DNA of 64,000 nucleotides. Source: Nemertoderma westbladi (lineage: Eukaryota; Animalia; Xenacoelomorpha). Shown here piece after piece: positions 4,797 to 57,234 of this stretch. A program made the translations under genes and the position numbers. How positions within the stretch are numbered: the stretch's first letter is position 1; every line of letters starts with the position of its first letter. The notes beneath the pieces are model-generated. The model searched no databases. It was not told the origin of the DNA and was given only the letters and a program-made list of their open reading frames with translations. Location: contig JAUCBJ010004415.1 in NCBI GenBank assembly GCA_032718475.1, positions 39,761 to 103,760 on the forward strand, written 5' to 3'.

Positions 4797-6063
4797 TGTA
4801 CGCGCTTTTGAAGACCTTTAGCAGTTTAACCTGCCAAAATTTATATGTCTTTTGGTTTATAAATAGACTTTAGAAGATGACAAATATTTAATACCAATAA
4901 ACACAACATTAGCAGAAGCCAGCCTAGTGCGCGTCCATTCACCCGCTGGATATACCCGGGAGACTGGATTCTGAGGGCTTAGATTATTATTGCAGTGTAA
5001 GCTTACTGGATTGTATTATTCGATTGATCGTTAATAATTAATTTCTGACTAATATTATTTACTTTCGGGAAATATTAACAGTTCCTTTAGGACGTGGCGC
5101 TCTATCTAGGTAAACAGAGATATGACTTATACTAATCACAACGGTAAGTCGGTAAGGCTTATGATTCACGTATGAGGCGCATTCTTTAGGAAATGCTTAG
5201 TTATCAGTCACAATCAGGCACACTACCGGTAACACACAATACTGCCCACTAATTTGCCGACCGTCAATGATTTTTATCATATATAAAGAGAACAGCAACG
5301 GACCAATGTAGTGCTTATCAAATAGCATTAAATTCACTACATACACAATAATATAAGTCGCAATCGCTATATATATAACCCGTCTCTCTAACCTGTAGTG
5401 TATCAAGAAAATTGGGAAATTTGGGTTCTTTATATATGTTCTCCAAATAATATTCAACCAAAACACAACAGTAAACAGCATTAAGACGGTAGGTTAAGAT
5501 ATGATATGACAATATATGACAAGATATGCACTGATTGTTTTGTTATGATATGATAACAGTTATACGCTCTATAATTTAAGCCTACTAATGTTTCTTCTAA
5601 AGTATGAAAACGAGTTGACTCTAGAGCCGTTGTTCCTGGCCTAGATAGCAACAACAACAAAGTATCAAGTAAAAAACAGTAAGACTGAACACTCCTAGTA
5701 TGATCGGCCGAAAGCTCCACATCGACAGAAAAAATCGCTCTGATTGGCTTAAGCTAAACAAAGAACCATGTGGCCAATGGCTGTTTCCATGTCAGCAACC
5801 AGCTGTTAGATCTCGTAATATGAATCATCACGGCTAAGCTGTGAAAGTTATTTGGTGCATTGCAGGTTTTTTGCCTTACCATGTCCGCCAAAACACGTAT
5901 ATAGCAGAATGACTTTTATGTCCGTTAAAACACCTATAACGGTACCTTGCGGGCGAGGGGAATATATATACAGTTAGAGAACCTTTTAGAGTATTCCAGC
6001 GCCTGGGGGGGAAACTGGATTGCGAAGCAAAAGGGCCAGTTATATCCCACAGAAGCGTTTACA
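4797..6063 (-). repeat. 3' LTR of the young BEL element
   Basis: Begins TGTACGCGC and ends TTTACA on the plus strand; matches 20769-22035 except at about 4 substitutions seen by eye; adjacent to the PPT. Confidence 0.97.
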
Positions 6064-6071
6064 CCGCTCCC
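6064..6071 (-). promoter_or_regulatory. Polypurine tract
   Basis: Minus strand GGGAGCGG immediately precedes the 3' LTR; conserved as GGGAGTGG at 44165-44172 in the older relative. Confidence 0.75.
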
Positions 6072-6141
6072 AGAAAATGGGATTTGAGTCTATAAAATAT
6101 ACAAAATCACAGTTTCTAATATACGTAAATACTCTAAACAG

Positions 6142-7590
6142 TTAGTCTTTCTTGCGCGGACGGCGTTTACGCAGTTTCTTAAAGCTAGCCAGAGTCCTTT
6201 TCTCTTTGGGGCGAGCCACTTTACAAAGAGGGCTATAACTCCTGGGTGAGGGGTGCAATATGATTGCATCAGAGGGTGTAGGATTATGGTCGGTGTATCC
6301 GCCAGTCGAAGTACCGGGTTGATTGACATCAACGTCCGGGGAGAGGGGTCTAACGGCTTTGAGAGCTCGTTTCAAGACAGCCGCTCTTACGGGTCCTTTA
6401 CGAGTGGTCTGAACGAGGGCTGTGGGTGGACCATAGGCAGTTAGAAACCTCCGGGGTTTAATGGTCCTTTCCAACTCGCGTTCGCGGGCTCGGTATTCGT
6501 AAGGCCGTCGATATACTTCCTGTAACTCGGGGTGTGAGTTAACAAACAAGTCTCCATAGTCCGGATCCTGACGGATATAATTGATTAAGTTATAGGAATG
6601 AAGGTCGCTAGGATTAACACTCCTGAGAAATTTGCGTACGAATTTGGTTGAAATACATTCTCCAACGCGCTTCAGTAGCTCGTAACTTGATAGGCGTGAT
6701 TTCTGTTCAACCGAAGCGAATAGATAAGGATGGAACGCATAAACTCCTTCGTAAGCGCGTCCGGGATAATAGCGATGGCGAGAATCACAATGTAAATCAG
6801 CGTTCGCTTCCCAAGCTCTGATGTAACGTAGTGTGATCATTTCATCTACGCTTTCCAAATCGTGATTAAAAGGGCAATCGAAACTGGCATGTCCCTTTAG
6901 TTGACAATGGTGACATTGAGTCATAAATTGAGGGCAAACCGCAAAAATGTGCAAGTTATTGAGTCTGCAATATGCACAATAAATTTCCATCACCGGTTGT
7001 TCGTGGAAATAGGAACAGCGGACGTTTGTGTCCATGGGCGTAACATGGTCTCTCGATGCGCATACCCGACAACGTTGCCGAGAAACATAGTTGGCATGGC
7101 GATAATTGTACGCAGTGAGACACTGTGGACCTTGATACCATTCTAGGATGTAATCGTTGTCGCTGTTCCGGGCGCGATAGGCTGAATCTCCTCAGATTCT
7201 AGGCATATTGGTTCGTCTTCCCAGTCTGTTACGAATAGAATTTTCGTGATCTATTCTCGGTTTACCGTTATGACTCCGCTGGGTATGATATTTAAATAGA
7301 ACCATTTCCCTTTCGGTGTCTACATCGTCCGTATCATGTAAATCGATAGGATGGCCGGTAGTTAGGAAGTCCATATACATACTATTACGATGCGTATAGC
7401 GAGCGGTGAATTTTCGATAGTCCAATTCACGCGTAAGTTGCTCTTGGGACATCGGCGGTTCGATATAACGACCATCGTCCTCCGTAATGGTTGGATCGGT
7501 TTCACCGCGTATCAAGCTATCCACAAATGCTTGTAAAGGTAGAGTATATCGCTCCCTGATACCAAGATCATCTTCTATCAACTCCGTCAT
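6142..7590 (-). CDS. Accessory ORF3 downstream of pol (~482 codons, one in-frame TGA at 7192-7194); tandem Cys/His zinc-knuckle protein with basic C-terminus
   Basis: ORFs 7192-7590 and 6142-7035 are in the same frame with 52 open codons between them. Motifs CRVCASRDH...C, CAYC..NNLH....C and CHHCQLKGHASFDC; C-terminal KKLRKRRPRKKD. A homolog is present in the older copy (46765-47425 and 44165-44400). Confidence 0.75.
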
Positions 7591-8413
7591 ATCTGCTATC
7601 TGAGTTTATTAATATCGAAATGAGTTTATGTTTAGGCGAGCGGACGTCGCTGCCTACCTCTCTTTGCCCCCGGACAGTGGGATTCTCAGCGCCGATGTAC
7701 CGTCGTCGCGGTGTTTACGCCAACATGTAGCAACAGCACGACAACGATAACCGGCACAAGTCACTCCACTGTCCGTCCCAAAGGCTTGAATCCACTTTAG
7801 GTTCTTTCTATAGGAGAGTTGGGCTACTTTCACAATTGCGACTAGCTACTGTAAACACACCTTAGCAGTAACATTCACCTATAAACGCACAAATTCCACA
7901 CAACTGTCACCAATTGTACACATACAGGCCATTTGTCCGTTAGTCAGTGCCTTCCAGAATGTCACGTTATTACTGTGTATCTTTGGATACTAACAGTGTG
8001 CTATGTATTCTCTATGCTATGCAATGAGACAAGCTTTCTATTGCTCTTTTAACTTGCTTCTAATTCTAGCGTGGGTGTTGCTATGGTGACATTATGGAAT
8101 GCTAGCGGTAGAATTAGGGTAATTCTCATGCATACAGATCTGGGATGCTATTTAATAATAATTCTTTAATTGTCAATATCCTCTTTATGCATGATTTTAT
8201 TAATTTTATCGGCTATTGACTATATGTTGGAGATTCTCGCACTCTAATACGCTCAATAGGATGAATCTCCGCTCCCATGATCTATTAATTAATGGAATTT
8301 TTGGGAATGTTATAAATTGCACAAAACGACAATTTATAAAATTCATTTAAATATGAATTTAAATTTATTCCCATGAATTTTATTATTTGATGTTAAAATT
8401 GACACAATTTTTT

Positions 8414-8705
8414 ATTCCAGAGCATGTCTGGGGACATAGGATCCTTAATTCTATAAAATTGTCTTTTAAGAGTATCGGTAAGTGCTGCGATATCTTAATT
8501 GACTAGAAATTGTTAACGGATCTGAATTTTTACAGATTTTACTAAATATTAAATTAATATTTAAGATGGGCACCGATCTATTCCAGAACTTGTCTGGTGA
8601 CGTTAACCACTGATTCTAGAATTTGTCTTTCAAGTATATCGGTGGGTGCCGCGATATCTTAATCGACTAGAATTACAGATGGTCAAAAAGTTTAACAGAT
8701 TTATT
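8414..8705. repeat. Diverged ~165-bp tandem duplication in the pol-ORF3 spacer
   Basis: TATTCCAGA..TGTCTGG and GTCTTT.AAG..TATCGGT..GTGC.GCGATATCTTAAT.GACTAGAA occur twice (~8414 and ~8579). Confidence 0.75.
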
Positions 8706-9217
8706 TGCGTTTTACGCTACTGTTAGAGGGACATCACGCTACTATATGTATTATTTAATATAAGGTAGAAGAGCAATATCGCACGAAGCAATGTCAGTGT
8801 GAAGAGGCAAGTCGTTTCCAAGGTCTACCCAGAGCTTGGCTTAGCCGAGACACGAGGATCTGAACTTTGCATTCCTAATACTCTGCCTACCAATAATACT
8901 TGAATATAGTAGTGGCTTTATTGTACTTTAAGAAGTACGGACATTTCATCTTACTGTAGTCACGTATTTATAATATGATACGGACAGTAAGGAAAGAGAA
9001 GAAATTATTTCTCGCCGTCGCACTAAATATATTATAAGTAATTACGTACGTAATAAACACTAATATATTGCACTAATCTACTAAATAATCACTAAAATAA
9101 CATTCTACTAAATAAAATTGAATAAAAACGATTATAATAAAGTACATAATAAAGTTCGCATATAAAAATATAACAAAATAGATAAAATCATATAGTCATA
9201 CACCCACTCCAGACGTA

Positions 9218-12200
9218 TTACGTGGGGGAGTCCCTAGATGTTTGAAGAATTAGGGAGGTGGTCGTGGGAAGAGTGTCTTGCCTTCCATAGTTCCCGGAGA
9301 GTTCTCTGTCTCTTTCCAGTAAACATAAACGACCAACTGGGCGATTGAGTTATTGCGTCTCAAAGATTATGCCTGGCTTCTTGAAATTACGCCGCATGAC
9401 GATGAGTTCTACCGAGCGTACTAAACCATCATCTGAGATGTGGGTCTTGATGATACGACCTGTCTGCCACCGTTTACGTGGGAGGTCTGGATCTACAATA
9501 AGCACCATATCTCCGGCGCTGACGTTTTCTTGCTGCGCAAACCACTTAGTTCGAAGTTGTAGCGTGGGCAGATAATGTTTCTCGAAATGGTCAGCGAAAC
9601 GACGGGATAGCAACTGCATAAGTTGCCAAGTTCGACGGCAGTATTCGTCTCCGTCGGCAATCTCCGATCGTGGGAGCATGGCTACAGGTTTCTTCAGTAG
9701 GAAGTGCGCGGGTGTTAGCGCTTCTAGGGAATCGGGACTCGATGAGACTGGCATAAGAGGTCTCTCGTTGAGATAGGCAGCGATTTCCTCCATTAATGTC
9801 CGCAAAAGTTCGTCGGTGAGATACGCGCGGCATGGCACTATAAAGTGAAATGCGGTTTTGACACTTCGAATTAATCTCTCACAACTTCCTCCCCACCAAG
9901 GGGCGTCGGCAGCGTTGAAGGTCCAGCTAGACGCTGTTATCCTTAGCTGGTCGTCCACCTGTCTTTGGTTCCAGTCCTTCACGTAAGCCTGTATCTCGTT
10001 GTTGGCACCTATGAAGTTCGTTCCTTTATCCGATCTCATGGTATTACTCGTCCCGAAGCGAGCGATCTGTCATCGTAAACTTAAGACGAAGCTGTTGGTA
10101 GATAGATCGTTCACCATATCGAGATGGATGGCTCTACAAGTCATGCACACGAAGATGACACACCATCTCTTGACTATAGTCCTCGCACGATATACTTCAA
10201 TAGGGCCAAATAAATCTACACCAGTATTAGTAAAAGGTGGTTCATAGAAGCTTACTCGTTCCCTAGGTAATTCTGCCTCTCGCTGTGTTAAAGGCCTACT
10301 GAATGCTTTCCTACAGGGTATGCAGTTCCTAAGAACTTGGTTCAGAGCTCTACGGGGTTTATCAAAATAATAGCGAGTTCGAATTTCGCTAAGAATTCGT
10401 TCTCTACCAGCATGATAAAGTTTACCGTGAACGTCTACAATCATCTTGATTTGTACTTCAAGATTTCTAATAAGTATGGGGAATTTGGTGTCAAAGGATA
10501 AGGGCGCATTGGTGAGTCTTCCTCCAACACGTATTAACCCATCTATCATTGTGCTCGAGAATCGATCCCTTAAGCGCATCTGCGGATTTCTCAACAACAG
10601 GAAATACTTTTCGGAATCCTCATAGCATTGCAGGAGTCTCAGTATCTGCTTATTTGTTTCTTCATGCTCCTGGTGACTAATTTTCTCCTTTAGAAAACGA
10701 TCAGATGTCTTATATTTGGGTAAATTTTTAATGACATGAACTTGTGCAGATGTCAATGGAGCGGTATCACTAGTGGTCTTCGTCCTGGAGTAGTGATGAT
10801 GAAAACATCGTCTTAAATATGTGACGGCTTTACAGAGCCGATTCCAGGAACTATAATGATGCATTGCTCTCTGCAGCATGGGTGAGATTCCTTGCGAGAC
10901 GTCTGGTATTCCAGATTTCCAATCTCTATCTCTAATTTCCACAACAGACTTATTTGTGTTGAGGGATTGTGGATCCGAAGCATCATTCCCGGAAGTATGT
11001 AATACAGATAGATCGATAGTCGGTTTAAACAACTTCGATTTACTCGCCCGGGTTTTAGGTTTGACTGTCTCCGCTCCCTTGGCTTGTCTAATCTCTGCCG
11101 TAGTAAGGTGAGGAGGCCATTCATCCTCTTCCTTGCTCAGGAAGTCGGGTCCACCCAACCAATCTGGAGTATCTATCAGTTCCTGTGGAGTTGCTCCCCT
11201 GGAGGCGATATCGGCTGGATTAATCGTACCAGGGCAATGTCTCCATTGATCTATCTTTGTGCGACTAAGAATAATAGCTACTCTGTTAGTAACAAAAACG
11301 CTGAACTGACAGACTTCATTGGTTAGATACTCCAACACGAGTAAAGCGTCGGTCCAATAAACCGTTTTCTCCAGTGGATAGTCGATTTGTTCCGTTACGT
11401 TCCGGCCGATGGCTGTAGCGTATAAAGCCGCCTTTAACTCCGCTCGAGGAACCTTTAACTTGTTGTTAATCAATGCCTTAGAGGTAACCAAGGCGACTTT
11501 GATTCCATCCGGGGTTTCGACTCGCAGATATGCTACTATACCTATTCCCATGTCGCTGGCGTCTCCAAACACATGGAGTTGATAGGAATACGTAGGAAGA
11601 ACATGGCCAAAATAGGTACGGGAAATTATAAAGTTCTCGATGGCAGGTAGAGAATCTTCCCATTTCATCCATTTCTTTAACAATTCTCCCTTAAGCGGAT
11701 CGTCCCATGAGTGGTTTTCAAGCCACATTTGTTGTACTAAACTCCGAGCAATCAATATGACTGGGCTAATAAATCCCAATGGGTCGAAATAAGTGCTCAG
11801 GATACTTAAACAAATCCGTTTGGTCCGAACTGGATTATCTCGCTGTTTGAGCTGAAAAAACAGGATGTCTCTTTCAGTGTCCCACTTCAAGCCAAGCGTC
11901 TTGGTTTCAGGAAGATCGTCCTTTATTAAGTCTAGGTCTTTCGCTCCGCGGTCTTCTACTGGTATCGCTTCCAGAAACTCACGGGAGTTGCTGGTGAATT
12001 TCGTCAGTCGAAATCCACCTCTTTTCAAACACTCTACCGTTCCTTTCGCGACATCTATGGCTTCTTCTACTGATGGAAGGGACCTTAAATTGTCGTCCAT
12101 GTATATATTCCGTTTGATGTTGTCTATCACCTCTTTTGAGAAGGAGTCTCGGTTGTCATTCGCAGTGGTTCGCACCACGGAGCAGGCGTTGGAAGGGCTT

Positions 12201-12227
12201 GATATGATTCCAAAGGCCTGGATGGTC
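9218..12227 (-). CDS. gag-pol exon 2: RT C-half (YMDD), RNase H (Peptidase_A17-type), integrase; premature stops at 10070-10072 and 9350-9352
   Basis: TIQAFGIISSP, NIYMDD, LHVFGDAS, VPRAEL, HH-CC zinc finger, TGVDLFGP, SDKGTNF, APWWGG, LNERP. After the TAA at 9350 the same frame continues LNRPVGRLCLLE, a typical BEL C-terminus, to TAA at 9218-9220. Confidence 0.92.
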
Positions 12228-13488
12228 CGCTTGCGTCCTTCTGGGCTCCTCCCTGAGGCGCACCCACGAGGCGGACGCTGTCCCACCACCCTTGGGGCCA
12301 GTCTGACTCCGTTTTTATCAGACCGGGCCGGAGGGTAGCCCGATGCTTCCCGGGTTCAATTTTCAATCCCCCGATCACACCGGCACAGCTCGTCGGTGTA
12401 GCCAGATGGTTGGCTACTGTCAACTTACTGTGGCCTGACTGTACATTGAGCCAACTCCGAGAGTCAACCGGCGGGTGGACCAGTCGATAACGATCGAGCA
12501 TCAAGGTCGCCCTTGAGCCAAAGCGACGGTCTTGTCCCAAGTAGGCTTGCGCTACCTAACATGGAATATTGACCGTTTTCACCCGCCTCGCCGGCAGTAT
12601 TGAGGGGAAGTCGGTTCCGCAAACAATACTGACTAGCTCGAAAGCTAGGAACAAGTAACCACTTACCAGTCACTGTACACGTGTACTCAATAGATGCTCA
12701 CGAAATCAAGTACACAACGGTAAACACAAAATCTGACGCATACCATGCACACACAGAGGACATAATCGGCAATGGACAAAATCGGTGACAAATCAGAGGG
12801 GACAAAATTGTATCGACTAATAAAGAGTCGAGAGTACTTTATTTTACCGACAGGGTAAAATAACTTTGTGTGCACAAAGTATGCTGGGGCGCAGTAAAGA
12901 TATGGTCCTACTAATAACCAGCGGCGACTGAACCAACCGGTAAGGGTTCCCATACCCACTCGCAGTAGCCATACATACACTCACGTATACCACGTACACA
13001 CACAAACCACAGATTCCAGAGTATCATTCACTCGGACCACACTACAACACCAACCCCTCCTTGCAGCCGATATTCCGCGTGCCACCTCCATTCCAATAGT
13101 AGTACCAACAGAATCATCAGGAACCTGTCCATTCCGATGCAACACCTCCATTCCAATAGTGCTACCCTGGGAAAAGACACGTTTTGGCAACCGATTGGAG
13201 ACAGTAAAGAGTCTGGTCAACTCATACATACCACACATAGACCTACCACATAGACCACATAAACCACAGATCACACTAAGCCACCACCCCTACTGTGTAC
13301 AGGACTGGCAGTACGGCAACAGGCCGACTAGGCGATACCACGGCACCATGTTGATTCATGGTTCGCAAGACACGAGGGCCTTCAGTAACTCCCCTGCACT
13401 ATAGAATAGATTTAACGTGCCCCCAGACCCTCACGAGTCCGCCGCCGCCTGTTCTGGACACCCCTATAGAGACCTCACCTCCTTGGGT
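12228..13488 (-). ncRNA. Group I self-splicing intron (subgroup ID-like), 1261 nt, ORF-less, in the RT coding region
   Basis: 5' exon ...ACUGGAU|ACCC; IGS GGGU-GUCCAG (13463-13454) gives a 10-bp P1 with U.G at the splice site. P3 GGCGGGUGAA (12587-12578)/UCCACCCGCC (12479-12470). P4 ACGGUC (12576-12571)/GACCGU (12531-12526) with J4/5 AA and J5/4 CAA. J6/7 UUA. P7 U[C]GACUG (12487-12481)/CAGUCA (12441-12436). P8 GGUUGACUC/GAGUUGGCU; J8/7 CAAUGUA. Ends ...AAGCG|GACC. Excision restores the frame and an ATG. Confidence 0.9.
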
Positions 13489-16400
13489 ATCCAGTATTCT
13501 ACCGGTTTCTGATTGAGGTCTCCTTCAGGCCACCACAGAAATCTCAGGATGTCTCTATCTCTATCCAGCGCCTTGACTTGTAAGAACATTCCCTCTATAT
13601 CTGAGGCGAACGCGATGGAATATTGTCTTAATCTTAAAAGTATTCCCAACAAAAATTGGAGCAAGTTGGGTCCTGGTAACAACTCGGAATTGAGGGATTG
13701 GCCCATATATAGCGCAGAGCCATCGAATACGACTCGGACTTCATGAGGTTTACCGGGTTTGGGAACGTAATGATGTGTTAAGTAATACGTTCTCTCAGTC
13801 ACTGGTGTTCCTTCCGGTACTCGCTCCGCGTATCCCTTTGTTATAAATTTCTTCAGCTGAGTTTGGTACATTTCTTTAGCTGAAGTATTAGCTGTAAGGC
13901 GTCGATGTAATTGAGCGATTCTTTTCTCTGCCAAGGGTCTGTTATTTATAAATCTAGGTTCTCGTTTTCGAAATGGTAGGCCGATTTCATATCTACCTTG
14001 ATCCTTTAAAAAACGTGTAGTTGTTTCCTGGATTTGCTTGGCTCTTTCTTCTTCTATCGATAGAGCCTTATCATATGAATTGGGCTCTACCAGTTCCTGA
14101 GTAAAGAATCGTACGGCTAGTTCGTCCCGAGTTCTAGCGTTGTAGCGCTCTATCTCATCGTTGAGTTCGTCATTGTAAGCGATGGGTTCCGATGGGCGAA
14201 TCCGTTGACATAGGTTCACCTGATTTTTCCAAGTTTGGTTTTCTGTAAGTAAGTCGATTGTGTTCTCTTCATCGAAGAGTTGGTAGATGTCGTCATTATC
14301 TGAGGAGTATGATGTTCCCTCAGTTAGTTCGTCCACTTCACTGCTCTCCACTTCCCAATCGTTTACTTGGTATGTTTGTTCTTGTGGCATTCTCTCTTCG
14401 AGAGTCCTGCGGGAAGGGCCAGTAAAGTACCAACCTACTCTAGTTCTTACCGCATAGGTTTGCAGTGGCTGTGGTTGAGCAGGCCGTTTCTCCAATGTTT
14501 CGAGCGCCTCATGCGCGTTCTGGCCGATGAGTATTTGCACTCCAGGATAATCTGTCTGGAATCGAGGTATCTTAAGATGTTGGATGCTCTCATCCTCGTC
14601 CCAATTATAAAGGTCTGCTTGAGTAGTAGCGAAGTTCTTTATAGCCACCATTTTTACTGACCTTATACCTTGTGCTCCTAACTTATCCTGGGGGGTGGAC
14701 AATACACCTACATAGTAATCTGCCGTTAGGGTAGATTTCCAAACCTGCATAATTCCTGACATATTCAATTTAGTCCGGAACTTGGGTTGTCCAGCAAAGA
14801 TATCTTCGGCTAGTTCTTGATCGATGAATGTTCCTGTGCTGCCGGAGTCAAGGAGGGCGTTCACTATGTAACTTTTGTTAAGACCGTGAACTCTTACCTG
14901 CACAACAGGAAATTCTCTGATTCCTACATTGGAAGTTGGAGCTTTCCAAGATGGTTGTTTGGCAAAAGTAGTTGGGGGAAACTCATCGTTGGTGTCCTTT
15001 TCATAAGTAAGTGCTCGATACACTGCGGTATTGATTAGATAACAGGATTCGTTGGCGTCGGAGAATTCATCAGTATAGAATCCTTCCATCTCAGATTCTT
15101 GATCAGTGTCGTTTACATCACTGAATTGGACATGTAGTTCGGGCTCACTTACCTGACTCTGTTTGTCTCGTTCGAACTCACTGTGTAACAAGATGTGATG
15201 TTTCGCGCCACACTTTGCACACTTTATATCGGAGTAACAGGTTCGCAGTTGGTGTCCTGGTCTGAGGCAATTATAGCATAACCGCTTGTCCCACACGACT
15301 GCACGTCTGTCTACAAGGGATTTCTTTAGAAATTCAGCACACGCACTCAAACGGTGGGTCCCGTCGCACAACACACAGTTAGGTTTTATGTTACTCACTT
15401 TACCTTGGGTAACTTGATGCACTCTCGTTTTTTCTTCGGGTTTTCTTCGGTGCATTCTGTTAGGAGACTGAGGAGGAGTCTTGACAACCTGTTCTCTCCT
15501 ATCATTGTTTCGAGCCTTGTATTTACTTACATCCTTTGAGGTTTTTTCAACGTAGTAAGATCTCTCAGTGTCTTTCCCGCTGTCCTCTTCTTGAGAAGCT
15601 TGGCTTTCGCCATCGTCAGTGTAACACACCGGTGTTACTCTTCTCCTAGAAGCGAGTTTCTCACTTACCTTATTTTCCGATGTTTTCTCTCTGGACTGCT
15701 TGATGAGTTGTAGTTTTACTTCACCATCTAAGAAGGACATGAGATCAGCCATGGTAGGGCTTCGTCGTTGCTGTTCATTCATATACAACACTTTCTTGTC
15801 CCAGCGTGTACATACTCCACCCTTTGGTAAAGTAGAAACTACGGCTCCAATAACCATGGAACTCTGATATTCATGAGACTTACCTAACCAGTCCAATTGT
15901 CTACAGATTTCCTGAATCTCATCGGAAAACTCTATAATCCCGCTACTAAGGAAGTGTCGGGGGGCTACTAATTTTGCATACAAATACTTAGCTATGTTAT
16001 CCTTATTACCATACCTGATGTTTAATGTATCCCATACTTGTCTTAATCCTTCTGGATGTCCAATAAACTTTAATGCCATTAACCTGGGAGGTCCTTCCAA
16101 GCACTTGATGAGGAACCTAAGTTTCTCTCCGTTAGATAGTACAGAGTTTTGTATGCTATCTTTGTAATATTCGTTGAAAGGTAACCATTTCATCTCATCT
16201 CCATTGAATTTGACGATCTCTCCCACTTTGACCGCTTGGCGGGCTTCTGTTCTAGCCATCTGACGCGTAAAGCTTTCTTGGGCCATCGTGTTATTTAATA
16301 TCGAATTATCAGTATATAAATTTCTCGGGTCATTGTCAGGTCTATAGGGGATATCGTTAATAACAGGTCTATAATCACCCTTAATAGGGTTTGCTATAGG

Positions 16401-18533
16401 AGTTTCTACTTCACTAGCAGTATAGATGCGTGTAGGCTCCACACCTTGCGCATGTAATACTTCAGACCTAACAGGTTGACACAATTTTACAGGGGGTATT
16501 GGTATCCCCTTTTGGATATTGACTAATTTGTCGCGTTCTAGTGCAATACTTTGCTGCACTTCTTGCAACTCTGCTCTACCTTCCCTTACTGTTCCCTTAA
16601 GTTGGTGGACAGTCTCCTGCATCTGTCCGAGCAGGAGATTCATCCCCCGCCGTCCCTCCTCTACCCACTCGACCGCCGAAGCGGGAGTCGCCAACATTGT
16701 AGCGGGCTGACGTGGGACGACGGGAGACAAATCTTTGATTTCTCTCTCAGCTTCCAGGACAGGAATATTCTCATGGACTGTTCTACCGGGTACAGGCAGT
16801 GTAGTACTGTGTAAAGGGAACTTAGAGTTAAGCTCTGGAAGTACAGGGGTCTCTAGCACAGGTGTGACTTTGGGAACGACAGGCCTAATTATTTCAGGCT
16901 CATCAACTATTGTAGGGAGTCTTTTGACCTGAATAGTTTGGTATGTGGGTTCCGTACTACCTAAGTCTGCGCTAGCTAGCTGTCTTCTAACAGCTGGGGG
17001 CAAATCAGGCAATTTGTGACGGTGAGATGTTTTTCTAAGCCTGCTTAGACGAGATCTATTTCCTCCGCCTTCAGGATCGGTGGTTTCGCTTTCCTCCGAT
17101 GATGTGTATCCTTGGCGTTTGGGAATAGATCGTCTCATCATCTGCATTTGACTAGCAGTTAACTGTTTATTTATGTTGTCTTGCGTCTCTTGCAGATTTT
17201 CCAACTCCAGTTGGGTAGTCTGCTCAGACGCTCTCCGTTCTGCTTCTGCCACTGCCCTTTCCGCCTTTGCTTCTGCCGCCGCTGCCTTTCTTTCTGCTTC
17301 TGCTTCTGCCGCCGCTGCCTTTCTTTCTGCTTCTGCTTCTGCCGTAGCCGCCGCCTTTTGTTCCTCTATCCGTCTTTTCTTTACTTTTTCTTCTTGGACT
17401 CTAGCGAGGCGGAGTTTTTCATCAAATTCTGCTTGGTTAGCAGCTAACATTTCAGCATCGATTGAGTCTAACACACGCTGGGTTCCTTCACTATTGGGGG
17501 AAAGTCCAGACAGCCGTCTCCTCAACTCTTCGTCTCCTAGGAATCGCTGATAGTCGGACAGATAAATGTCTATGGCGTCTCTCGTTCGTGGTTTCTCTGA
17601 GGTCTCTTCGCCTTCCACTTGAGAAAGGGTGGCATCGGTTGGTTCTTCATAAGTTAGTCTCTCAGACAGCTGGGATTTCCACTGGTCCGTTTTTTGCACT
17701 TTGAGACCTACCCGCTGGAACCAAGTCTTAACAGAAACCTGCAGCAACGTGTCCTGTCTTCTTTTGGAAGTTTCCTCAAAGGCTGATAGGATTAGTCGAA
17801 TGCGTAGGGTTCTTTCGCGTACTTGATATAGCAGTTCTTCCTGCTCTTGAGGTCCTTGGGGTTGTCGAAACAGTTGTTCTTCTAATCGCTCTAAGGAGCC
17901 GAAGAATCCCTGCACATATCCTGCTGCCGACCTCTTCCAAACAGCTGGATCCATCGTATCTTTAGCCACTCCCATCCTGTGTATATCTTCCCAAGTAGCC
18001 TCGGACAGATCTAACGGGAGTCCGGGTCCGGGAAAGTTCCATTGTGACTCGACAATAGACATCAATTCTTCCCTGGCGTATCCCGCATAATTATCTTGGG
18101 TCGCTCGCTTATTTCTCGCCCAGTCGGCTTGATGTTCCTCCACCGCAATCAATATAGTAGCTAGCACTGCGGCAGGAAGGGTGAGAAGGGGGTCCGAGTA
18201 GGCTTTAGCCGTCATCTGTAATCCGCGTTCGGGGGTCAGCTCGACAGTATCCGAACCACTGGAACTATCGGATCGCTGGGAACAAGTTTCTTGACTAGGC
18301 TGTTGCTGCTGTGGGACAGCTGCTTCCTGGTTTCGTTTGACTTGGGCCCGAGTGCCGATGATAGACCTACGGTGTTGGATTAGCTTAGGGTCTGATACCA
18401 CTACCGGAGGGATGACCTTTCTTTCAGTAGGAGGTGAGCTGAACTCCTTTCTTAATCGCTCCACACTCCTATCTGTGTCACAGATGGTTGTATCGATTAG
18501 ACTGTCTGACAGGTTTTGCTGAGTGTCAGACAT
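13489..18533 (-). CDS. gag-pol exon 1: Gag (DUF1759-like, Zn knuckles), aspartic protease, RT N-half
   Basis: KFNGDEMKWLPF, CVLCDGTH..C, CYNCLRPGH..C, CAKCGAKHH.LLH, ALLDSGS, RVVFDGS, LLPGP, SDIEGMFLQ, LRFLW...EYW. Unspliced reading ends at the TAG at 13464-13466 inside the intron. Confidence 0.95.
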
Positions 18534-19864
18534 GTTTAGCTATACAGTTGAATGCTTACTGCTATAGTTACAGTTAAAGCAAGTCTAGCAATTCAGTATG
18601 ACCGTTGGCCTAGTACCGGTAATTTATTACAGTATATTAGAATACCGGTATACACTTATAGTATATATAAGTATTGTAAACTAGGTTTGTCACAGAGTAC
18701 CGGTATATAATTTTAGCACAAATATATATAAATATATAATAGGCCTATCGTGAATACCGGTATACAGCTTACACTTATAGTATATATAAGTATAATTATG
18801 AACTAGAATTAATTACAGAATACCGGTATGATTTCCGCTCAAATTTATAGAAATAAATATAATAAGCCTATGGTAAATACCGGTATGTCAATTATTTTAG
18901 AATAATTGAATTTCTGAATATTTTAGGGTTACTTGGTTACTTTAACTTACTTTGTTACCGTTATTTAAGCAGTAGTCCAACTGATATTGAGACCTAGTTG
19001 TTGTATGGCAGGCCTACTATTTATAAATCTTTTGAGTTGATTTATAATATTTATATACCCGTTTAAAAGGGGTTTTGTCAATATTTGAAATAAATGTTAT
19101 TATTTCTGGGGGAGTCACTACACAGAAGCTGTGCGCTCTCAGTGAAGTGCTATTTATTGGACACTAAAACAGATAATTCTAATTTACCTAAGTTACTTAA
19201 TACTACAAATTACTTACGATACGGGTGAGATTAATTCTCTAATTAAACACAACAAAATATTACGTACGAAATTTTTTAGGGTAATTTTACAGGAAGTCTA
19301 CAAACCAGTCTAACAAAGGGTTAGATTTCTGATTATTACAACGGACAGGGTACTACGGTTTTTGAAATAATAAGTAGTAGTAAATATATTGCACTGTCCA
19401 GATAGGAAGATACCACCGCCTGACAACCTATAACCGTATCGCTATAGGTACTACGTTATGTATCACGGAGTGTTCCTACCTAGAAGTTAATTACCGCGGA
19501 CTACCAGATCCAGCGTGCCTATTAACCACTTTACAACACAAATATACTGCCTACACACTAATTACCTCGGAAAGCACTGTACACTAAACCCTAAATTAGG
19601 TACAAGTACTGGTACAACAAATAATCAGTAGTTAAATATACTTGAACAGTTAAAAGAACCACGGCATCTGCTGGAGTGACCGGTGCACAAAATCACCAGT
19701 CTTGTCCTACGCCAAGCAGCCCGTGTAGTACCGGGGTTAATTTAACTATAACGGTATGTGTAACAAACACAATTACTGTAGGAATAAACTTGGGGACATG
19801 AATGTTGCGAATAATCGCATAAACTCTGAATAATAAATATTACGCTACCCGTACAGAATACTCA

Positions 19865-20410
19865 AACAAAATACAAACCAAACGCTGGCAGACTACCACC
19901 AAGCCTAAATAAACTACTGTATGTGCAGATTCCAAAACGGTTAGTTAGTATGCGTTCTAACACAGTAGTACGACTTATTCTTTAAGAGGGGATTGACCTT
20001 ACAGCTATGGCTGCCCCAACTTACTAACTGGCACTTTATCAGACAAACTCTACACACGCAGCAATCTCTTCAGACCTAATAATAGCTAGACAACAATCCA
20101 GCCTACAAAATATCTGAGTAATAACTATTACGGTACCTGAACAGACCACACAAACAAACACAGGCCAAAACGCTGGCAGAATACTGTCAAGCCTAAATAA
20201 ACTACAGTATGTGCAGATTCCAAAATTGTTAGTTAGTATGCGTTCTAACACGGTAGTACGACTTATTCTTTAAGAGGGGATTGACCTTACAGCTATGGCT
20301 GCCCCAACTTACTAACTGGCACTCTATCGGACAAACTCTACACACGCCGTAATCTCTCCAAACCCAACAACAATCTAACAACAGTCCGGCCTACAATTAT
20401 CTGAACAATC
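19865..20410. repeat. ~290-bp tandem duplication in the 2.2-kb 5' leader
   Basis: AAGCCTAAATAAACTAC...GGGGATTGACCTTACAGCTATGGCTGCCCCAACTTACTAACTGGCAC occurs twice (~19901 and ~20189). Confidence 0.85.
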
Positions 20411-20574
20411 TGAGCAGACTTACACGTCTTCAGCTCAATATTAACTTACATGTAAATAAAACCGACAGAAATAAGTAAAATCTCAATAAAAAATCAGGGC
20501 TGCAGTCCCTGATTAAATACTAAGACCTACCGGTATACAATAATCAAAATCGAATAATACTAATGTACTTATAC

Positions 20575-20702
20575 TGGAAGTACCGGTTAGGACAGTTGGG
20601 CCTACGGACCTACAGAAGTACCGGTTCTGACAGTTGGACCTACGGACCTACAGCAGTACCGGTTCTGGCAGTTGGGCCTACTGACCTACAGAAGTACCGG
20701 TT
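20575..20702. repeat. 39-bp tandem repeat (about 3.3 copies) in the 5' leader
   Basis: Unit approximately AGAAGTACCGGTTCTGACAGTTGGGCCTACGGACCTAC. Confidence 0.85.
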
Positions 20703-20768
20703 CAGGTTTACCGGTTGACCGGTACTTTCAACTTTATTGCTTACTGCAATAAAGTCAATAACTGTTAT

Positions 20769-22035
20769 TGTACGCGCTTTTGAAGACCTTTAGCAGTTTA
20801 ACCTGCCAAAATTTATATGTCTTTTGGTTTATAAATAGACTTTAGAAGATGACAAATATTTAATACCAATAAACACAACATTAGCAGAAGCCAGCCTAGT
20901 GCGCGTCCATTCACCCGCTGGATATACCCGGGAGACTGGATTCTGAGGGCTTAGATTATTATTGCAGTGTAAGCTTACTGTATTGTATTATTCGATTGAT
21001 CGTTAATAATTAATTTCTGACTAATATTATTTACTTTCGGGAAATATTAACAGTTCCTTTAGGACGTGGCGCTCTATCTAGGTAAACAGAGATATGACTT
21101 ATACTAATCACAACGGTAAGTCGGTAAGGCTTATGATTCACGTATGAGGCGCATTCTTTAGGAAATGCTTAGTTATCAGTCACAATCAGGCACACTACCG
21201 GTAACACACAATACTGCCCACTAATTTGCCGACCGTCAATGATTTTTATCATATATAAAGAGAACAGCAACGGACCAATGTAGTGCTTATCAAATAGCAT
21301 TAAATTCACTACATACACAATAATATAAGTCGCAATCGCTATATATATAACCCGTCTCTCTAACCTGTAGTGTATCAAGAAAATTGGGAAATTTGGGTTC
21401 TTTATATATGTTCTCCAAATAATATTCAACCAAAACACAACAGTAAACAGCATTAAGACGGTAGGTTAAGATATGATATGACAAGATATGACAAGATATG
21501 CACTGATTGTTTTGTTATGATATGATAACAGTTATACGCTCTATAATTTAAGCCTACTAATGTTTCTTCTAAAGTATGAAAACGAGTTGACTCTAGAGCC
21601 GTTGTTCCTGGCCTAGATAGCAACAACAACAAAGTATCAAGTAAAAAACAGTAAGACTGAACACTCCTAGTATGATCGGCCGAAAGCTCCACATCGACAG
21701 AAAAAATCGCTCTGATTGGCTTAAGCTAAACAAAGAACCATGTGGCCAATGGCTGTTTCCATGTCAGCAACCAGCTGTTAGATGTCGTAATATGAATCAT
21801 CACGGCTAAGCTGTGAAAGTTATTTGGTGCATTGCAGGTTTTTTGCCTTACCATGTCCGCCAAAACACGTATATAGCAGAATGACTTTTATGTCCGTTAA
21901 AACACCTATAACGGTACCTTGCGGGCGAGGGGAATATATATACAGTTAGAGAACCTTTTAGAGTATTCCAGCGCCTGGGGGGGAAACTGGATTGCGAAGC
22001 AAAAGGGCCAGTTATATCCCACAGAAGCTTTTACA
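20769..22035 (-). repeat. 5' LTR of the young BEL element
   Basis: Direct repeat of 4797-6063, followed by the TSD GAAGG. Confidence 0.97.
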
Positions 22036-34357: not shown

Positions 34358-35734
34358 TCAGTCAAATCCTCCACTGATGTATGATGGTCCTGCTTCTTCT
34401 AGTAAGGCTACTTCTTCTTTCTTGGCTCGGGCAATCTTCTTATGTATACGCTCCCTCTTCTTCTTCCCTTGGTACCTGGCATAACTAACGCGCTTGCGGT
34501 TCTTGCGATCGATACTTCGTCGACTGTGGGTGTTGCTGGTCAGGTCATTCTGAGATGTTTTGTTTAGAATTTTATAACTACCAGATGCTCCATTGTTGAA
34601 ACTCAATATGGCACTGTTGATGGCCAGTTTGATGCGTTTATGGCCATGAAATTTATGTTTAGGAGCTCTACTCCACACTGCGCCATTCAGAGACTCACTC
34701 TGGTTCTGGGTATATCCCGGTAAGCATCGCTGAAGGAGAAGTGGATCTGAGAGTCGTCTATAGACTGGAAGTAGCAGTGGTAGAAACACAGGATCGAGGT
34801 GGTGAGGTTTGTCTGTGAATTTTTTACCTGCCTGAAACTTGCAAAAAGTAGATTCTCCTTTGTCACAATATTTGTGGCGTACTTCAGGTGTTGGCAGCAT
34901 AATGCTATGAACGATTGTTGCGAGAATGTCCCTTTTCATCTTCCAGAGACATCGCCTTTTTTCTTCTGGAGTTTTTGCTGTAGCATCCACATTCTTTCTA
35001 ATAGCATTGCCATAATATCTTGATAGACGTTCACAAGTTGGGAGAGAAAGTCTATGTTTGGAGCCTCCAACAAACTTGCCATCAGAGAGTTTGCCTTTGT
35101 TGTTCTCTCTAACATCTCGAAGGGCTTTATGGAGGCGCTTCTGCACATGGTTTATGCAATCCAGTTTATTTACTCTGTTGCAATCGACAGTACTATCAGA
35201 GTGTTGAGACCAATGTTCCTTTCCCCTATCTGAACTGTCGAATTCCTCTTTTTGAGCTTTTGTCATAGGCTCATACTTCTCACAGCTATCACAGGCTCCA
35301 TAGACATTCCAAACATTCTTATATGTTGAGCTGTCTCCATTACATATCAGTTCCTTGAACATCAATCCATGATTTACACCCATCAGACCAGAGTTTGAAC
35401 GACTAAACAACTCAATGCCAATACTGGCCTCCATTGAACCACTTGATCCTGTATGAATTGTTTGACATGTTGAGCAATCTTTAGTATGGCTCTCAAGCCA
35501 TACTTTATATTCCTTAGATCTCTTGTTCAGGGGATTGAAAGTAACCTGATTGCAGACCTTGGTACGGAACCCATAATCAAGCACTTTGCCCGACTCCATA
35601 GAGATTACTGCACCATAGCCATAATCCGATGTGTGACCCCTCTTGGCCCATGAACCATCAAATGAAACTGCAGTTTCAACAGGCAATTCATCAGATCTTC
35701 TGATTTCTTTAACGATAGATTCTATCTTTAACAT
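34358..35734 (-). CDS. Transposase, 'Mutator-like'/Kolobok-type domain (5' truncated)
   Basis: SFDGSWAKRGH.S..G, C(N)GDSS, KLDCINHVQKR, YYGNAIR, H..C....CKF, RCL.G.TQNQSESLN..VW..APK. Confidence 0.8.
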   Translation of the reverse strand: MLKIESIVKEIRRSDELPVETAVSFDGSWAKRGHTSDYGYGAVISMESGKVLDYGFRTKVCNQVTFNPLNKRSKEYKVWLESHTKDCSTCQTIHTGSSGSMEASIGIELFSRSNSGLMGVNHGLMFKELICNGDSSTYKNVWNVYGACDSCEKYEPMTKAQKEEFDSSDRGKEHWSQHSDSTVDCNRVNKLDCINHVQKRLHKALRDVRENNKGKLSDGKFVGGSKHRLSLPTCERLSRYYGNAIRKNVDATAKTPEEKRRCLWKMKRDILATIVHSIMLPTPEVRHKYCDKGESTFCKFQAGKKFTDKPHHLDPVFLPLLLPVYRRLSDPLLLQRCLPGYTQNQSESLNGAVWSRAPKHKFHGHKRIKLAINSAILSFNNGASGSYKILNKTSQNDLTSNTHSRRSIDRKNRKRVSYARYQGKKKRERIHKKIARAKKEEVALLEEAGPSYISGGFD

Positions 35735-40882: not shown

Positions 40883-42703
40883 CTAAAAGAATGGTGACCC
40901 ACACTCGCAATTGAACAATTTAATTATACTTTCTTTATATACTTTACGGCTTTGCATCGTTCCACACAGCTGCCAAGAATTATCACCTAATTTCTTCACC
41001 CTATTTTGGTCCATTTCGCCATCGGATTGTCCAATGGCTATAATTTCTCCGAAGCAAACAATGATTCCTATACCTTTACCAGGTGATGGATCAGCTTCAA
41101 CCAGATTCCATACATCATTTAGAGGATCGTAGCACTCAATGCTACTCAGTAGGCCTTTTGGAATATGATTACTGCAGCCACCTACCACGTAGATATGGTT
41201 GTTATAAACTGCGCACCCAAAGGAATACCGTCTGGTGTTCATCGCCGCCACTCTCTTAGTCCATTTTTTGGTTTCTGGGTTGTACTTCTCGACCGAATTC
41301 AAAATGCTAGAATCATTGATACCGCCAATAGCATAAAGACATCCACCCAGAACAGCCACTGACAATCGTGATCGACGATACGTCATTGAAGTAACCGGTT
41401 TCCATCTGTTGGTGTTTGGGTTGTAACGTTCCACAGTCTTGAGGTGTCTTTGCCTACTTCTATATCCCCCAACCACATAGAGCAACCCGTCCATCACAGC
41501 GACAGCATGGACATAGCGGGATGTGCTCATTGGGACCATGGTATCCCATTGGTCGACTTCTGGGTCATAACGCTCACTGACTCTCTGTGCTATGCGCTCT
41601 GCATTTAATCCTCCAACCGCATACAAAAATCCATTGATCACAGCGACTCCCACACTAAATCTGGGCCAATTCAATTGATTCACCAATTCCCAGTCATTAG
41701 TCTCTGGTTTGTATTGCTCTACCTGGGAGAGTTGAATCCAGAACGAACTTCTGATTGAAATCCGGCCGAAAGCAAATAAACGTGCACAGGGCTGGGGTTT
41801 CCGTGCATGGTTCCCCACCCAAGGGCTGGAGGTCAATGAGACATCCTTCCGGAATGTCTTGGCATCTTCTACCAGTTTCAGACACTCATTGTCATTAAAA
41901 ATTAGAGGGTGGGTCTCCACAGTTCCTTCTAGGAATGTAAATTTAATTAGCGGCATACGAATGCGTTTGAGCAACTCCAGCAGTAATGGAAAAGGTTCCC
42001 CATTGTGCTTGGTATGGTGCTGAATAAATTCCTTACTGCTCACAACCCATTTCATCACAGCAGTAAACAGCTCCTCCTCAGACCGAAGATTCAGCTCGTC
42101 ACTTCTAATTATATCCTTCAGCTTATTAACTGGCAATGAAAGAAACTCCTCATTCTCTATAACATTATGGAAGTGGTGCATCATGTACTTTTTGGCATCA
42201 CGCAAGAGGTCCTGACATAAAAATATTTCCGCAATCGATAGGAAACCAATACAATTACTCGGGTCCAGGTTGTTCTTCAAGAACTCGCAGCACCTTTGCA
42301 GCACCTTTTTCACTTGGAGCATAGATGCAGCAGCCAACAGTTTCTCCACATTTTCCTCATCTACCGTTATGAATGATGTGTATGCAAAGTTGATTATCTG
42401 TTCCACAGCGTGTGCGTCTACTTTGCTGATTCTCACCTCAGCTTGATTGGCTTCTTTCCATTCATGAGTGAACATGGCTTCGAAGTAGGGACTTAACCTC
42501 ACCAAAATACATCTGTGCGTGGTGATTCTCTGTTCTTCGACGATGAGTCGCATGTCACAGGGTTTGTTAACTATTTCACTCCTAATTTTGGATAAGATCC
42601 TATCATACTCCATGGTGTTATTTTTCGGCTCATAGTTTCTAGCCGTTGCCTCTTCGCCAACTTCCCACCCAGTGACACTGTTCCTGCAGCCAAGGTACCA
42701 CAT
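40883..42703 (-). CDS. BTB-BACK-Kelch protein (KLHL20/diablo-like), intronless; likely start ATG at 42613
   Basis: CDMRLIV..HRCIL..SPYFEAMF (BTB), LDPSNCIG..EEELF.AVMKW (BACK), about 6 Kelch repeats (LYAVGG..VERYDP...W). Confidence 0.9.
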   Translation of the reverse strand: MWYLGCRNSVTGWEVGEEATARNYEPKNNTMEYDRILSKIRSEIVNKPCDMRLIVEEQRITTHRCILVRLSPYFEAMFTHEWKEANQAEVRISKVDAHAVEQIINFAYTSFITVDEENVEKLLAAASMLQVKKVLQRCCEFLKNNLDPSNCIGFLSIAEIFLCQDLLRDAKKYMMHHFHNVIENEEFLSLPVNKLKDIIRSDELNLRSEEELFTAVMKWVVSSKEFIQHHTKHNGEPFPLLLELLKRIRMPLIKFTFLEGTVETHPLIFNDNECLKLVEDAKTFRKDVSLTSSPWVGNHARKPQPCARLFAFGRISIRSSFWIQLSQVEQYKPETNDWELVNQLNWPRFSVGVAVINGFLYAVGGLNAERIAQRVSERYDPEVDQWDTMVPMSTSRYVHAVAVMDGLLYVVGGYRSRQRHLKTVERYNPNTNRWKPVTSMTYRRSRLSVAVLGGCLYAIGGINDSSILNSVEKYNPETKKWTKRVAAMNTRRYSFGCAVYNNHIYVVGGCSNHIPKGLLSSIECYDPLNDVWNLVEADPSPGKGIGIIVCFGEIIAIGQSDGEMDQNRVKKLGDNSWQLCGTMQSRKVYKESIIKLFNCECGSPFF

Positions 42704-50846: not shown

Positions 50847-53800
50847 TTTCGAGCCACATCTGTTGGACTAAACTCCGAGCAACTAGGATTACAGGACTAA
50901 TAAATCCCAATGGATTAAAATAAGAGCTCAGAATACTTAGGCAAATCATCTTAGTTCAAATAGGTTTGTTGAGTTTCTTTAATTGAAAGAATATCCCAGT
51001 TTAAACCGAGGGTCTTAGTTTCTGGGAGGTCGTCTTTAATAAGGTTGAGATCTTTAGCACCACACTCTTCTACTGGGATCACCTCCAGAAACTCACGGGA
51101 GTTGCTGTTGAACTTGGTTAATCGGAATCCACCACATTGGAGACACTCTACCATTCCCTTGGCAACCTCGATCGCTTCTTCCACTGGTGGTAAGGATTTG
51201 AGGTTATCGTCCATATAAATGTCTCGTTTGATGTTATCGATCATGGCTTTAGGGGAGGCATCTCGATTTTCGTCGGCAGTGGTATGCACCACTGAGCAAG
51301 TGTTAGACGGACTAGAGATAATGTCAAAAGCCTGGATGGGATAGTCATCCAGTACTCTACTGGTTCTTTATCGAAGTCTCCTTGTGGCCACCATAGGAAC
51401 CGTAAGCTAGCTCTGTCCCATTACAATTCATTTAACTTGAAGAAACATGCCTTGGATGTTGGAGGCTACTACTAGGATTGGCATGCTGCATTGCAGCTGC
51501 ATTTTTAAGAATGCTGTGCCAGGTTTGGATGCTGGAGGCAAATGTGATGGAGTATTGACAGAGCCGTAATAATATACCCAACAGCAATTGTATTAAGTTG
51601 GGTCCCAGCAATAATTCTGAGTTTAGGGACTGACCTTTGTATAAGGCGGAGCCGTCAAACACTACCCAGACTTCATTGGGTTTACCAAGTTTGGGAACGT
51701 AATGTGTGCGTCAAATAATACGTTCTTTCTGTCACCGGGGTTTCTGCGGGAACTCACTCCGCATATCCCTTATCAATGAACTTTTTAAGCTGAGTTTTAT
51801 ACATCTCTTTAGCTTTCTTGTTCATGGATAAACGTCAGTGTAATTGTTCGATTATTTTAACGGCAACAGTCGATTGTTAATGAAGCTGGGTTCTCGTTTC
51901 CTGAAAGGTAAACCTATCTCGTAATGGCCCTCTTCCTTGAGATAGCGAGTTATCGTAGCTTGGATTTGTTTAGCTCTCTCTTCCTGTACGGAGAGAGTTT
52001 TATCATATGAGTTAGGTTCAACAGCTTCTTGTGTAAAGAATCTTACCGCATGTTCATCTCTCAGCTTTGCATTGTATCGCTCCACCACAACATTGAGTTC
52101 ATGATCTTCATATGCTAATAATTCATTACTCTGTTGAATTATTCTGTTTGGTTAGACTAGGCTTGATTTTAGGTGAGTGGTCCTATGACATTATGCTCAT
52201 CATACAATACCTGGATATCGTCGTTATCTGAGGAACATGGAGTTTCCTCAGCTGGGATTATTTCCTCCTATATTCTCAGTTCTTTCTCTTAGGGTTTGTT
52301 TTGATGTACCTGTGAAATTCCAACCTACCTGAGTTCTTGCTGCTTAAGTCTGTAGCGGTTGTGGCTTGACAGGTCTCTTCTCTAATGTGACTAACTCTTC
52401 ATGAGCATTTTGCCCTATCACTAACTGGTCTTTGGGATAGTCGGTCTTAAATCTGGGGACCTTATACTGACTGGAAAAGTTATCCTCATCCCAGTCATAA
52501 GGTACTACCTGACAGGTGGCAAAGTTCTTAATAGCTACCATTTATTTTTTTTTATCTACAATTTCCAAATAATCCATTACATTTCCAAATAAATGTATAA
52601 TTCATTATAAATTAGATAAATAATATCTCCAATGAGAAATAATCATAGATTAGGTCTGGAATATCATTAAGTAGGTCGAAATCTAATGGACAAAATAATT
52701 ACAGTACGTTAATTTAGAGAAATATTTCGATTTAAGTAAAAATAATACCAGAAATTATGTAGAATAAGCGCACATTACGAACTCCCTAGCTATATAGGGA
52801 GGGCCTTGCAAACGGAAGTTGTGTATAGTAAGGAAGTTTGTAGCAGCAACTATGGCACAAAGACAGATTCAGCAAACGAGACAGGACAACTCATCCAAAT
52901 GAGACCACGGATGATCAATCATGTTAGAATCCACCGAATGACATCTGGAACAAACCACCAGTGGATATTATCAACATTTACCATGCCATAACAAAGTTCA
53001 TGACATCCAGGATCTCTTTCGTGTCAACCACGAGAGTCACCTCATTGGAATGTACAGAACACCGGTAATAGACAATGCTGTAGCGAAGTATCTTCATTGC
53101 ATCACCTCCAGCAAGGAATAAAACTTTGGAATCCCAATGTCCACGAAGCAGCCATCGCGAAAACAGTGGAAGAGATTTATTGAAGCAGTTCGCAAGGAAG
53201 TATTCATTATATTCGATGACAAAGGAACAACCAAGTGACTTATTGGAGTTTTTCGTAATGCACACAGAACGATGCAGCTGCACTCCCTAACTAGTTGGAC
53301 GCACAGGTTTTGTATATGGTGTGTACAGCGCCCTATGGACTTGGACTTCCAGACATCAGCAACATATATGGATTGGCCACCTACAGACCTATGATGGGAC
53401 TTATATGTCATAAGCACATGAACAGGAAAACATTCAAAGACTGTTATGGATCCCAGCTCACCATCGACATAGTTTGGGAAGCTGACAGCTGCTAGCCCTG
53501 CTCGAGTTCTTTATGACCATCATCATGGGTGAAGAACTGAACAAGTTTCTCGTTTCGGACCAAGCTGTCAGTATCTGCGAGTTGATAGGGATTGAAATCG
53601 GACCACTAGTCGACTTCCCTGGCTCTAAAGGTGACACCGTATCGTATCCAAAGTATCCAAGTTTCTTACCAATACGGGAGTGGAGACACCACAAAACTGC
53701 TGGATTAGAGGATAGTGGGAGAGGGAGGATCAGTAAATGGAGGATCAGGAGCAGATCGACGCATATCACCGCATGCTGACGATCTGCACTTGAAGCTCCT

Positions 53801-57210: not shown

Positions 57211-57234
57211 GCAATACTGTAATTACAGGGTTCT

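Follow-up and report, generated by a model that had tools for sequence, protein, structure and literature searches.

A group I intron with predicted self-splicing activity in the reverse transcriptase of an animal nuclear BEL/Pao retrotransposon

What interrupts the reverse transcriptase of a BEL/Pao retrotransposon in Nemertoderma westbladi, and could it remove itself from the RNA of the element? The question was raised by a window of 64,000 nucleotides (contig JAUCBJ010004415.1, positions 39,761 to 103,760; this whole stretch is called the window, and coordinates count from its first letter). The initial annotation, made from the letters alone, had proposed that the insert is a self-splicing group I intron. 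Table 1 collects the features of the intron and of its host.

Table 1. Coordinates of the host element, the intron and the intron's parts in the window
Feature	Position	Strand	Evidence
5′ LTR, TG...CA	20769..22035	-	
5′ part of BEL/Pao gag-pol frame (gag, protease, RT start)	13489..18539	-	DUF1759
Last six exon bases, final U, guide target	13489..13494	-	6/6 pairs with 13454-13459
Group I intron, 1261 nt, in reverse-transcriptase region of pol	12228..13488	-	contig skip and phase check
Internal guide sequence and P1 extension (P1 3′ strand)	13454..13463	-	same position in 21 relatives
Conserved 5′ peripheral (P2-type) domain	13307..13453	-	identity to L028, L108, L131; consensus fold
Variable GT-rich loop insertion, about 600 nt, limits approximate, no recognisable gene	12690..13306	-	
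UUCG-capped hairpin before P3	12633..12648	-	
Catalytic core P3-P8	12435..12592	-	R1 52.3 bits, R2 115.4 bits; pair table
P3	12587-12580/12477-12470	-	pair table
P4	12576-12571/12531-12526	-	pair table
P7	12487-12481/12441-12436	-	pair table
P9 region, P9.0, terminal G at 12228	12228..12434	-	free fold; L028/L049/L062 similarity
3′ part of pol (YMDD, RNase H region, integrase)	9350..12227	-	Peptidase_A17, Integrase_H2C2, DUF5641
3′ LTR	4797..6063	-	
Decayed related BEL copy, insert absent at same site	51319..51453	-	

The host is a complete BEL/Pao element on the minus strand (4797-22035), bounded by a 5-bp target duplication. Its LTRs differ by 4 mismatches over 1267 positions, and the element is young. 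One stop codon stands in the integrase (10070-10072). All named proteins among the 66 matches of the 3′ frame are animal. Likewise, the named proteins among the best 120 matches of the kelch gene of the window are all animal kelch-like proteins, which are at most 45% identical to it and for the most part belong to KLHL20/diablo. Because BEL/Pao is moreover described as a metazoan group in the accessible part of PMC3118150, the host is very likely an animal and the insert very likely lies in animal nuclear DNA. LTRs, target duplication, protein domains and animal-only named relatives thus bear out the host and context first annotated. No tRNA-type primer site was found after the 5′ LTR. Eleven bases after this LTR (20758-20768) are the exact reverse complement of LTR positions 501-511, and self-priming of the element via this complement is possible; we would liken such priming to that of Tf1. 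An extra frame of 349 amino acids, rich in Cys and His and matching no Pfam family, precedes the 3′ LTR (6142-7191, minus strand). Elsewhere the window carries the single-exon BTB-BACK-kelch gene (40883-42703, minus), two inverted copies, 96% alike, of a non-LTR reverse transcriptase (44382-46148, plus; 55909-57222, minus) and a Mutator-like transposase (34358-35734, minus).

The limits of the insert were defined by contigs from sequencing runs. In runs X1, X3 and X5 there are contigs in which 12227 directly adjoins 13489; exactly 1261 bases are left out, and the junction is unambiguous, no letter fitting both sides. In the same three runs, loose ends reading the other exon were found in 29, 11 and 2 contigs at 13489 and in 16, 6 and 1 contigs at 12227, respectively. 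Therefore, empty-site copies exist as DNA, and the insertion was precise and made no duplication. Direct reading of the insert ends showed neither duplication, terminal repeat nor polyA, as had been claimed. Run X5 is only presumed to be RNA, no RNA run being listed among the runs searched, and its joined form says nothing on splicing because the same form stands in DNA runs. For the same reason, unphased junction reads from RNA-seq would not be decisive.

The motifs SDIEGMFLQ and YMDD flank the insert, one on each side, in agreement with the proposed split of pol. Excision restores the frame as predicted, with 1683 open codons up to the 5′ junction and 718 after the 3′ junction in unchanged phase. 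If unspliced, the pol frame entering the intron ends 8 codons inside it. The insert ends are AC...CG and cannot slide to GT-AG, GC-AG or AT-AC, which rules out spliceosomal removal. An intron-less relative had been reported at 51335-51357. It does match across the junction, but this copy is decayed and carries a 5-base duplication just after the junction.

The group I identity was examined with two covariance models, R1 built from 14 organelle-type cores and R2 from 30 mixed cores. The window is in neither training set, although the cores of both were picked with a 22-base P4 motif taken from it. R1 matched the window at 12435-12592 with 52.3 bits (E 7e-12, next best 13.5) and R2 gave 115.4 bits (E 4e-26, next best 11.2). 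R1 returned no score on seven loci carrying the search motif alone, and the R..S motif occurred in 0 of 20000 shuffled inserts. The P4 motif by itself retrieved 23 viral and 120 metagenome loci (55 of 64 metagenome parts scanned; 40 loci with short flanks). Among the 139 matches with enough downstream sequence, duplicates included, 115 have the two halves of P7 in order, a feature outside the search pattern. An Rfam match had also been expected; Intron_gpI (RF00028) gave no group I match in 11000-15000. On 20 viral loci the Rfam model called one motif-bearing core group I (L009, E 7e-5), and it matched none of 20 further loci, fungal cob cores included. Its silence on the window means little, because it misses other such cores. 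Overall, the insert is confirmed as a group I intron, self-splicing remaining a prediction, and the models support an ID-like core resembling mitochondrial ID introns. The formal ID label, for the mitochondrial training cores as for the core of the window, is one that we assume.

The core elements P3 to P8 stand in canonical order with the P3/P7 pseudoknot, and among relatives both sides have changed in 17 of 33 predicted pairs. P3, initially read as a perfect 10-bp helix, is present with 8 bp followed by an A.C mismatch. The other helices were recovered as described, by direct reading, pair table and folds: P4 has 6 bp, P7 has 6 pairs and a bulged C, and the P6 extension and P8 are present in folds. 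The guanosine-binding pair G12485-C12437 follows the bulged C12486; in the relatives this G-C pair was forced by the motif search. The first P7 pair varies across 93 distinct cores (C-G 53, U-A 28, A-U 11, G-C 1), and the window fits this variation. At J6/7 (12490) and at the third P6 pair the window departs alone, unlike 92 of the 93 cores. The UUA quoted for J6/7 contains a letter private to the window copy, the family letter standing in nearly all the depth of X1, X3, X4 and X5.

Outside the core, the consensus fold of the 5′ peripheral domain has both sides changed in 9 of 51 pairs. The GT-rich middle of about 600 nt is absent from the closest relatives, and no Pfam family was found in 12 of its 17 small frames that were scanned. 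The UUCG-capped hairpin is where it had been placed, upstream of P3; the base pair at its foot is swapped in other copies, and loose ends occur at 12649 in X1 and X4. R2 found no second core within the window. As for a homing endonuclease, the longest frame in the insert has 168 amino acids and is antisense, and the 12 of 17 frames scanned had no Pfam match under E 0.1.

The 5′ splice site can be read from P1. Positions 13494-13489 pair with 13459-13454 over all six bases, with U.G at the junction and a 4-bp extension, and P1 arises unprompted in a free fold of 13300-13500, in agreement with the original reading of a 5′ exon ending in U. The G found six bases ahead of a conserved AACAGG-type motif recurs in 22 of 30 distinct 5′ regions. 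In 18 of these 22, made up of the window plus 17 out of 21 relatives, all six guide bases can pair with a hexamer further upstream that has U as its last base, as compared to 46 of 458 (10%) with swapped guides, and many different hexamers are used among the relatives. Prediction from P1 only places the 5′ splice site of the window at 13489, the boundary observed in contigs. At the other end, the insert does finish in G at 12228, with a P9.0 of 2 bp (12434/12433 with 12229/12230) in a free fold of 12228-12436. Similarity among the three close relatives L028, L049 and L062 stops after the same terminal motif as the end of the insert, the 3′ end pattern having been designed with the window known and hence not being a blind test. 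P10 with the 3′ exon amounts, on direct reading, to at most 3 contiguous pairs.

We then considered the other copies of the insert. Three DNA runs from three studies yielded 1919, 841 and 115 contigs on the stretch searched, in many variants. Because of these, the insert is a varied repeat of the species and not a chimera. Depth is greater for empty copies in X1 and X3, where that inside the insert lies well below that of the flanks; in X4 it lies above them, depth not being copy number in either case. At 12573, about a tenth of the depth in X1 and X3 has an additional base within P4. A minority of contigs carry other letters at positions 13454 and 13456 of the guide (10-11 in X1, 5-6 in X3 and the only one in X4). 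In addition, one X1 contig tracks the intron to 12228 and continues with 30 letters unlike the exon. These two observations, unlinked to each other, hint at a second insertion site; the changed guides could reflect decay instead of a second target.

Differences between copies were compared with the fold. Of the 40 differences listed (44 more exist), 13 fall at paired positions of single-sequence folds, 7 keeping the pair and 6 breaking it, and the remaining 27 fall at unpaired or unfolded positions. Two of the six broken pairs are the guide changes, and a comparative fold would keep two 5′ changes. After four of 40 rows had been dropped (one at the frame end, three outside the frame), 19 of 36 listed coding differences were silent as compared to 28% expected, and 6 of 9 were silent 3′ of the intron. 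This count compares the window copy with a mostly empty family and not with intron-bearing copies alone.

The likeness to organellar ID introns, initially proposed, holds for the core motifs and for R1, but introns on viral and unassigned eukaryotic contigs turned out to be closer. The best whole-length matches are the metagenome contigs L028, L108, L131 and L118, with identities of 75-77% across the first ~180 bases and of 67-70% across the core, and capsid-gene introns of large DNA viruses are 68% alike in the core. A tree of 43 cores places the window among 33 viral and unassigned cores and separates all of these from the 9 mitochondrial cores (100/96). On this tree the window has a long branch (0.69) without a resolved position inside its clade; a viral donor would be plausible. 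The host genes of relatives encode capsid, RNA polymerase, DNA polymerase B, virophage capsid, histone H3 and retroelement-like frames, and LAGLIDADG, HNH or NUMOD3 frames adjoin some viral and organellar relatives. None of the 143 loci with the core motif has a BEL flank, and window-specific patterns had no match in viral contigs. Among prokaryote genomes, one of nine motif matches is a real core, and it comes from a metagenome bin.

Some relatives bear on the way in which such introns move. The introns of L046, L070 and L074 are 94-99% alike, and their flanks are unrelated except for the hexamer read by the guide. With L104 included, the range is 93-99%; this fourth intron, again in an unrelated flank, has a different hexamer and a guide matched to it. 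Such a pattern would be expected from reverse splicing. The cob genes of L065 and L066 are split behind codon 131, a common intron site according to the available part of PMC6279837.

Several loci deserve mention in their own right. L033 carries, on its minus strand, a histone H3 frame (2-370) in which codon 2 comes straight after the end of an intron from this family; the contig begins within that intron, so that the 5′ exon lies outside it. Major capsid genes on L001-L003, L013 and L153 harbour introns of this family towards their ends, with more than one codon serving as the site, and these genes look to us like those of invertebrate iridoviruses. For IIV22, IIV22A, IIV25 and IIV30, the accessible portion of PMC4149023 reports that group I introns were not found. 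Two further contigs of large DNA viruses, L155 and L159, have capsid genes with a related intron and a slightly different P4. In L039, L098, L040 and L025, relatives lie beside gag-like, reverse-transcriptase and zinc-knuckle frames. The gag-like case is a lead only (Atlas, 0.92, L039), and the frame of L074 had no Atlas match. Other eukaryotic retroelements may thus carry the same intron family.

How would the intron act in the RNA of its host? By established group I chemistry, free guanosine would attack after 13489 at the U.G pair, the freed exon would then attack after 12228, and the exons would be joined at the terminal G. Folding may need host proteins. Spliced RNA would encode the whole polyprotein, and unspliced RNA a Gag-protease product terminating 8 codons past the 5′ junction. 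As the simplest source of the window copy, with its near-identical LTRs, is an RNA that had kept the intron, splicing would have to be partial. Since the unspliced message ends so early, partial splicing could set the ratio of Gag to Pol. Entry and spread were likely by reverse splicing into RNA with the six-base target, because the intron has no homing endonuclease; copying by the element's own reverse transcriptase and integrase would follow. Reverse splicing via a pairing of 4-6 bases followed by reverse transcription is the route proposed for such moves in the part of PMC10964413 available to us.

The insert is most likely a recently functional ribozyme riding on the RNA of the retrotransposon. 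We consider it probable that the lineage still removes itself from the RNA of the element or did so until recently, and the window copy itself may be impaired. The strongest competitor, which we hold to be possible though rather unlikely, is a dead passenger: the intron would have entered one BEL copy and would no longer splice, the broken subfamily being copied in trans by intron-less elements. Indeed, a dead intron could be mobilised by the empty copies, which are far commoner, and copying of unspliced RNA would then need no explanation. The departures at J6/7 and the third P6 pair, the A.C after P3, the integrase stop codon and the extra P4 base in some copies all argue against activity, and the much greater depth of empty sites and the 600-nt low-complexity insertion also agree with a passenger. 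However, P1, P7, P9.0 and both ends are intact, and most copies keep the family letter at J6/7. The 718 codons downstream of the intron are open, a pair in the UUCG hairpin has been swapped among copies, and the excess of silent differences 3′ of the intron points the same way, these being few and not limited to intron-bearing copies.

Very improbable, in our opinion, is an insertion at the DNA level in the manner of IStrons, in which a transposase or endonuclease acting in trans would insert the unit after a short target and the ribozyme would merely hide the insertion. It would account for the absence of a target duplication and for relatives at unrelated sites with one common hexamer; bacterial IStrons do couple a group I intron and a transposon, as stated in the accessible part of 10.1101/2023.11.20.567912, and nuclease frames adjoin some viral and organellar relatives. 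Against this, transposase and TnpB are absent from 79 frames beside relatives and from 12 frames in the insert, and the targets change together with the guide. The chance that the insert is an assembly chimera, a contaminant or an organellar fragment is very small: although the 32 pieces listed, out of 2887, include none that spans a junction with 31 letters to the left and right of it, the many variant contigs come from DNA runs of three studies, the guide matches the exon exactly, the element is whole with its target duplication, and the core groups away from mitochondrial cores.

Going beyond a ribozyme that was recently functional, we tentatively propose, as a possibility well short of an even chance, an active endonuclease-free family of group I introns in nuclear retrotransposons of one animal. 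It would spread by reverse splicing at guide hexamers and be fixed by reverse transcription, its slow splicing would set Gag to Pol, and it would form an arm of an overlooked ID-like group in eukaryotic viruses, transposons and genes such as that of histone H3.

The ribozyme class is known; its compartment and host are undescribed as far as the literature was searched. In that search, which covered mostly open-access papers, no report of a group I intron in an animal retrotransposon was found. The initial statement that nuclear group I introns are known essentially from rDNA needs a caveat, since polinton-like viruses of protists have group I introns in short protein genes according to the available part of PMC12220804, and candidate group I introns in shark rDNA spacers are described in the accessible part of PMC8393795. 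What is available of PMC9587614 deals with a nuclease derived from such introns rather than with the ribozyme. If a ribozyme intron does reside in an LTR-driven protein-coding transcript of an animal, such introns can persist in animal messenger RNA. The locus would also offer a natural test of the long-standing idea that reverse splicing and reverse transcription carry group I introns to further sites, with target RNA, enzyme, and filled and empty sites together in one genome. More cases are probably hidden in repeat libraries, because Rfam misses most of this intron family.

Compared with known systems, the intron of the window shares core motifs and their order with the ID introns of fungal mitochondria (R1 E 7e-12), of which we take the cob393 site to be an example. 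It differs from them by its nuclear retroelement host, by the absence of a LAGLIDADG frame, by its longer P6 and P9 extensions and by its separate branch (100/96). IStrons (IS605/IS607 with a group I intron) also link a ribozyme to a mobile element and insert precisely without duplication. However, they are bacterial and their intron is part of a transposon carrying TnpA/TnpB, whereas the intron of the window is a passenger in the gene of another element, with neither TnpA nor TnpB in the 12 frames scanned in the insert. The host shares with other BEL/Pao elements, as far as described in PMC3118150, the domain set, the LTRs, the 5-bp duplication and the EYxMTxxxFG..SP and YxDD motifs, and differs by its ribozyme intron, the absence of a tRNA-type primer site and the extra 349-aa frame. 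The introns of large DNA viruses, virophages and polinton-like viruses have the same core and the same guide position before AACAGG, and they too interrupt protein genes, among them those of capsid, RNA polymerase and DNA polymerase B and short genes of polinton-like viruses; the host of the window's intron is instead an LTR retrotransposon with an RNA stage, and no nuclease accompanies it. Finally, the rDNA introns of fungi and protists and the candidate shark spacer introns are also nuclear, and spread by reverse splicing has been proposed for them (PMC10964413, in the part available). Introns of rDNA sit in rRNA precursors made by polymerase I, whereas the intron of the window breaks a reading frame in an LTR-driven transcript.
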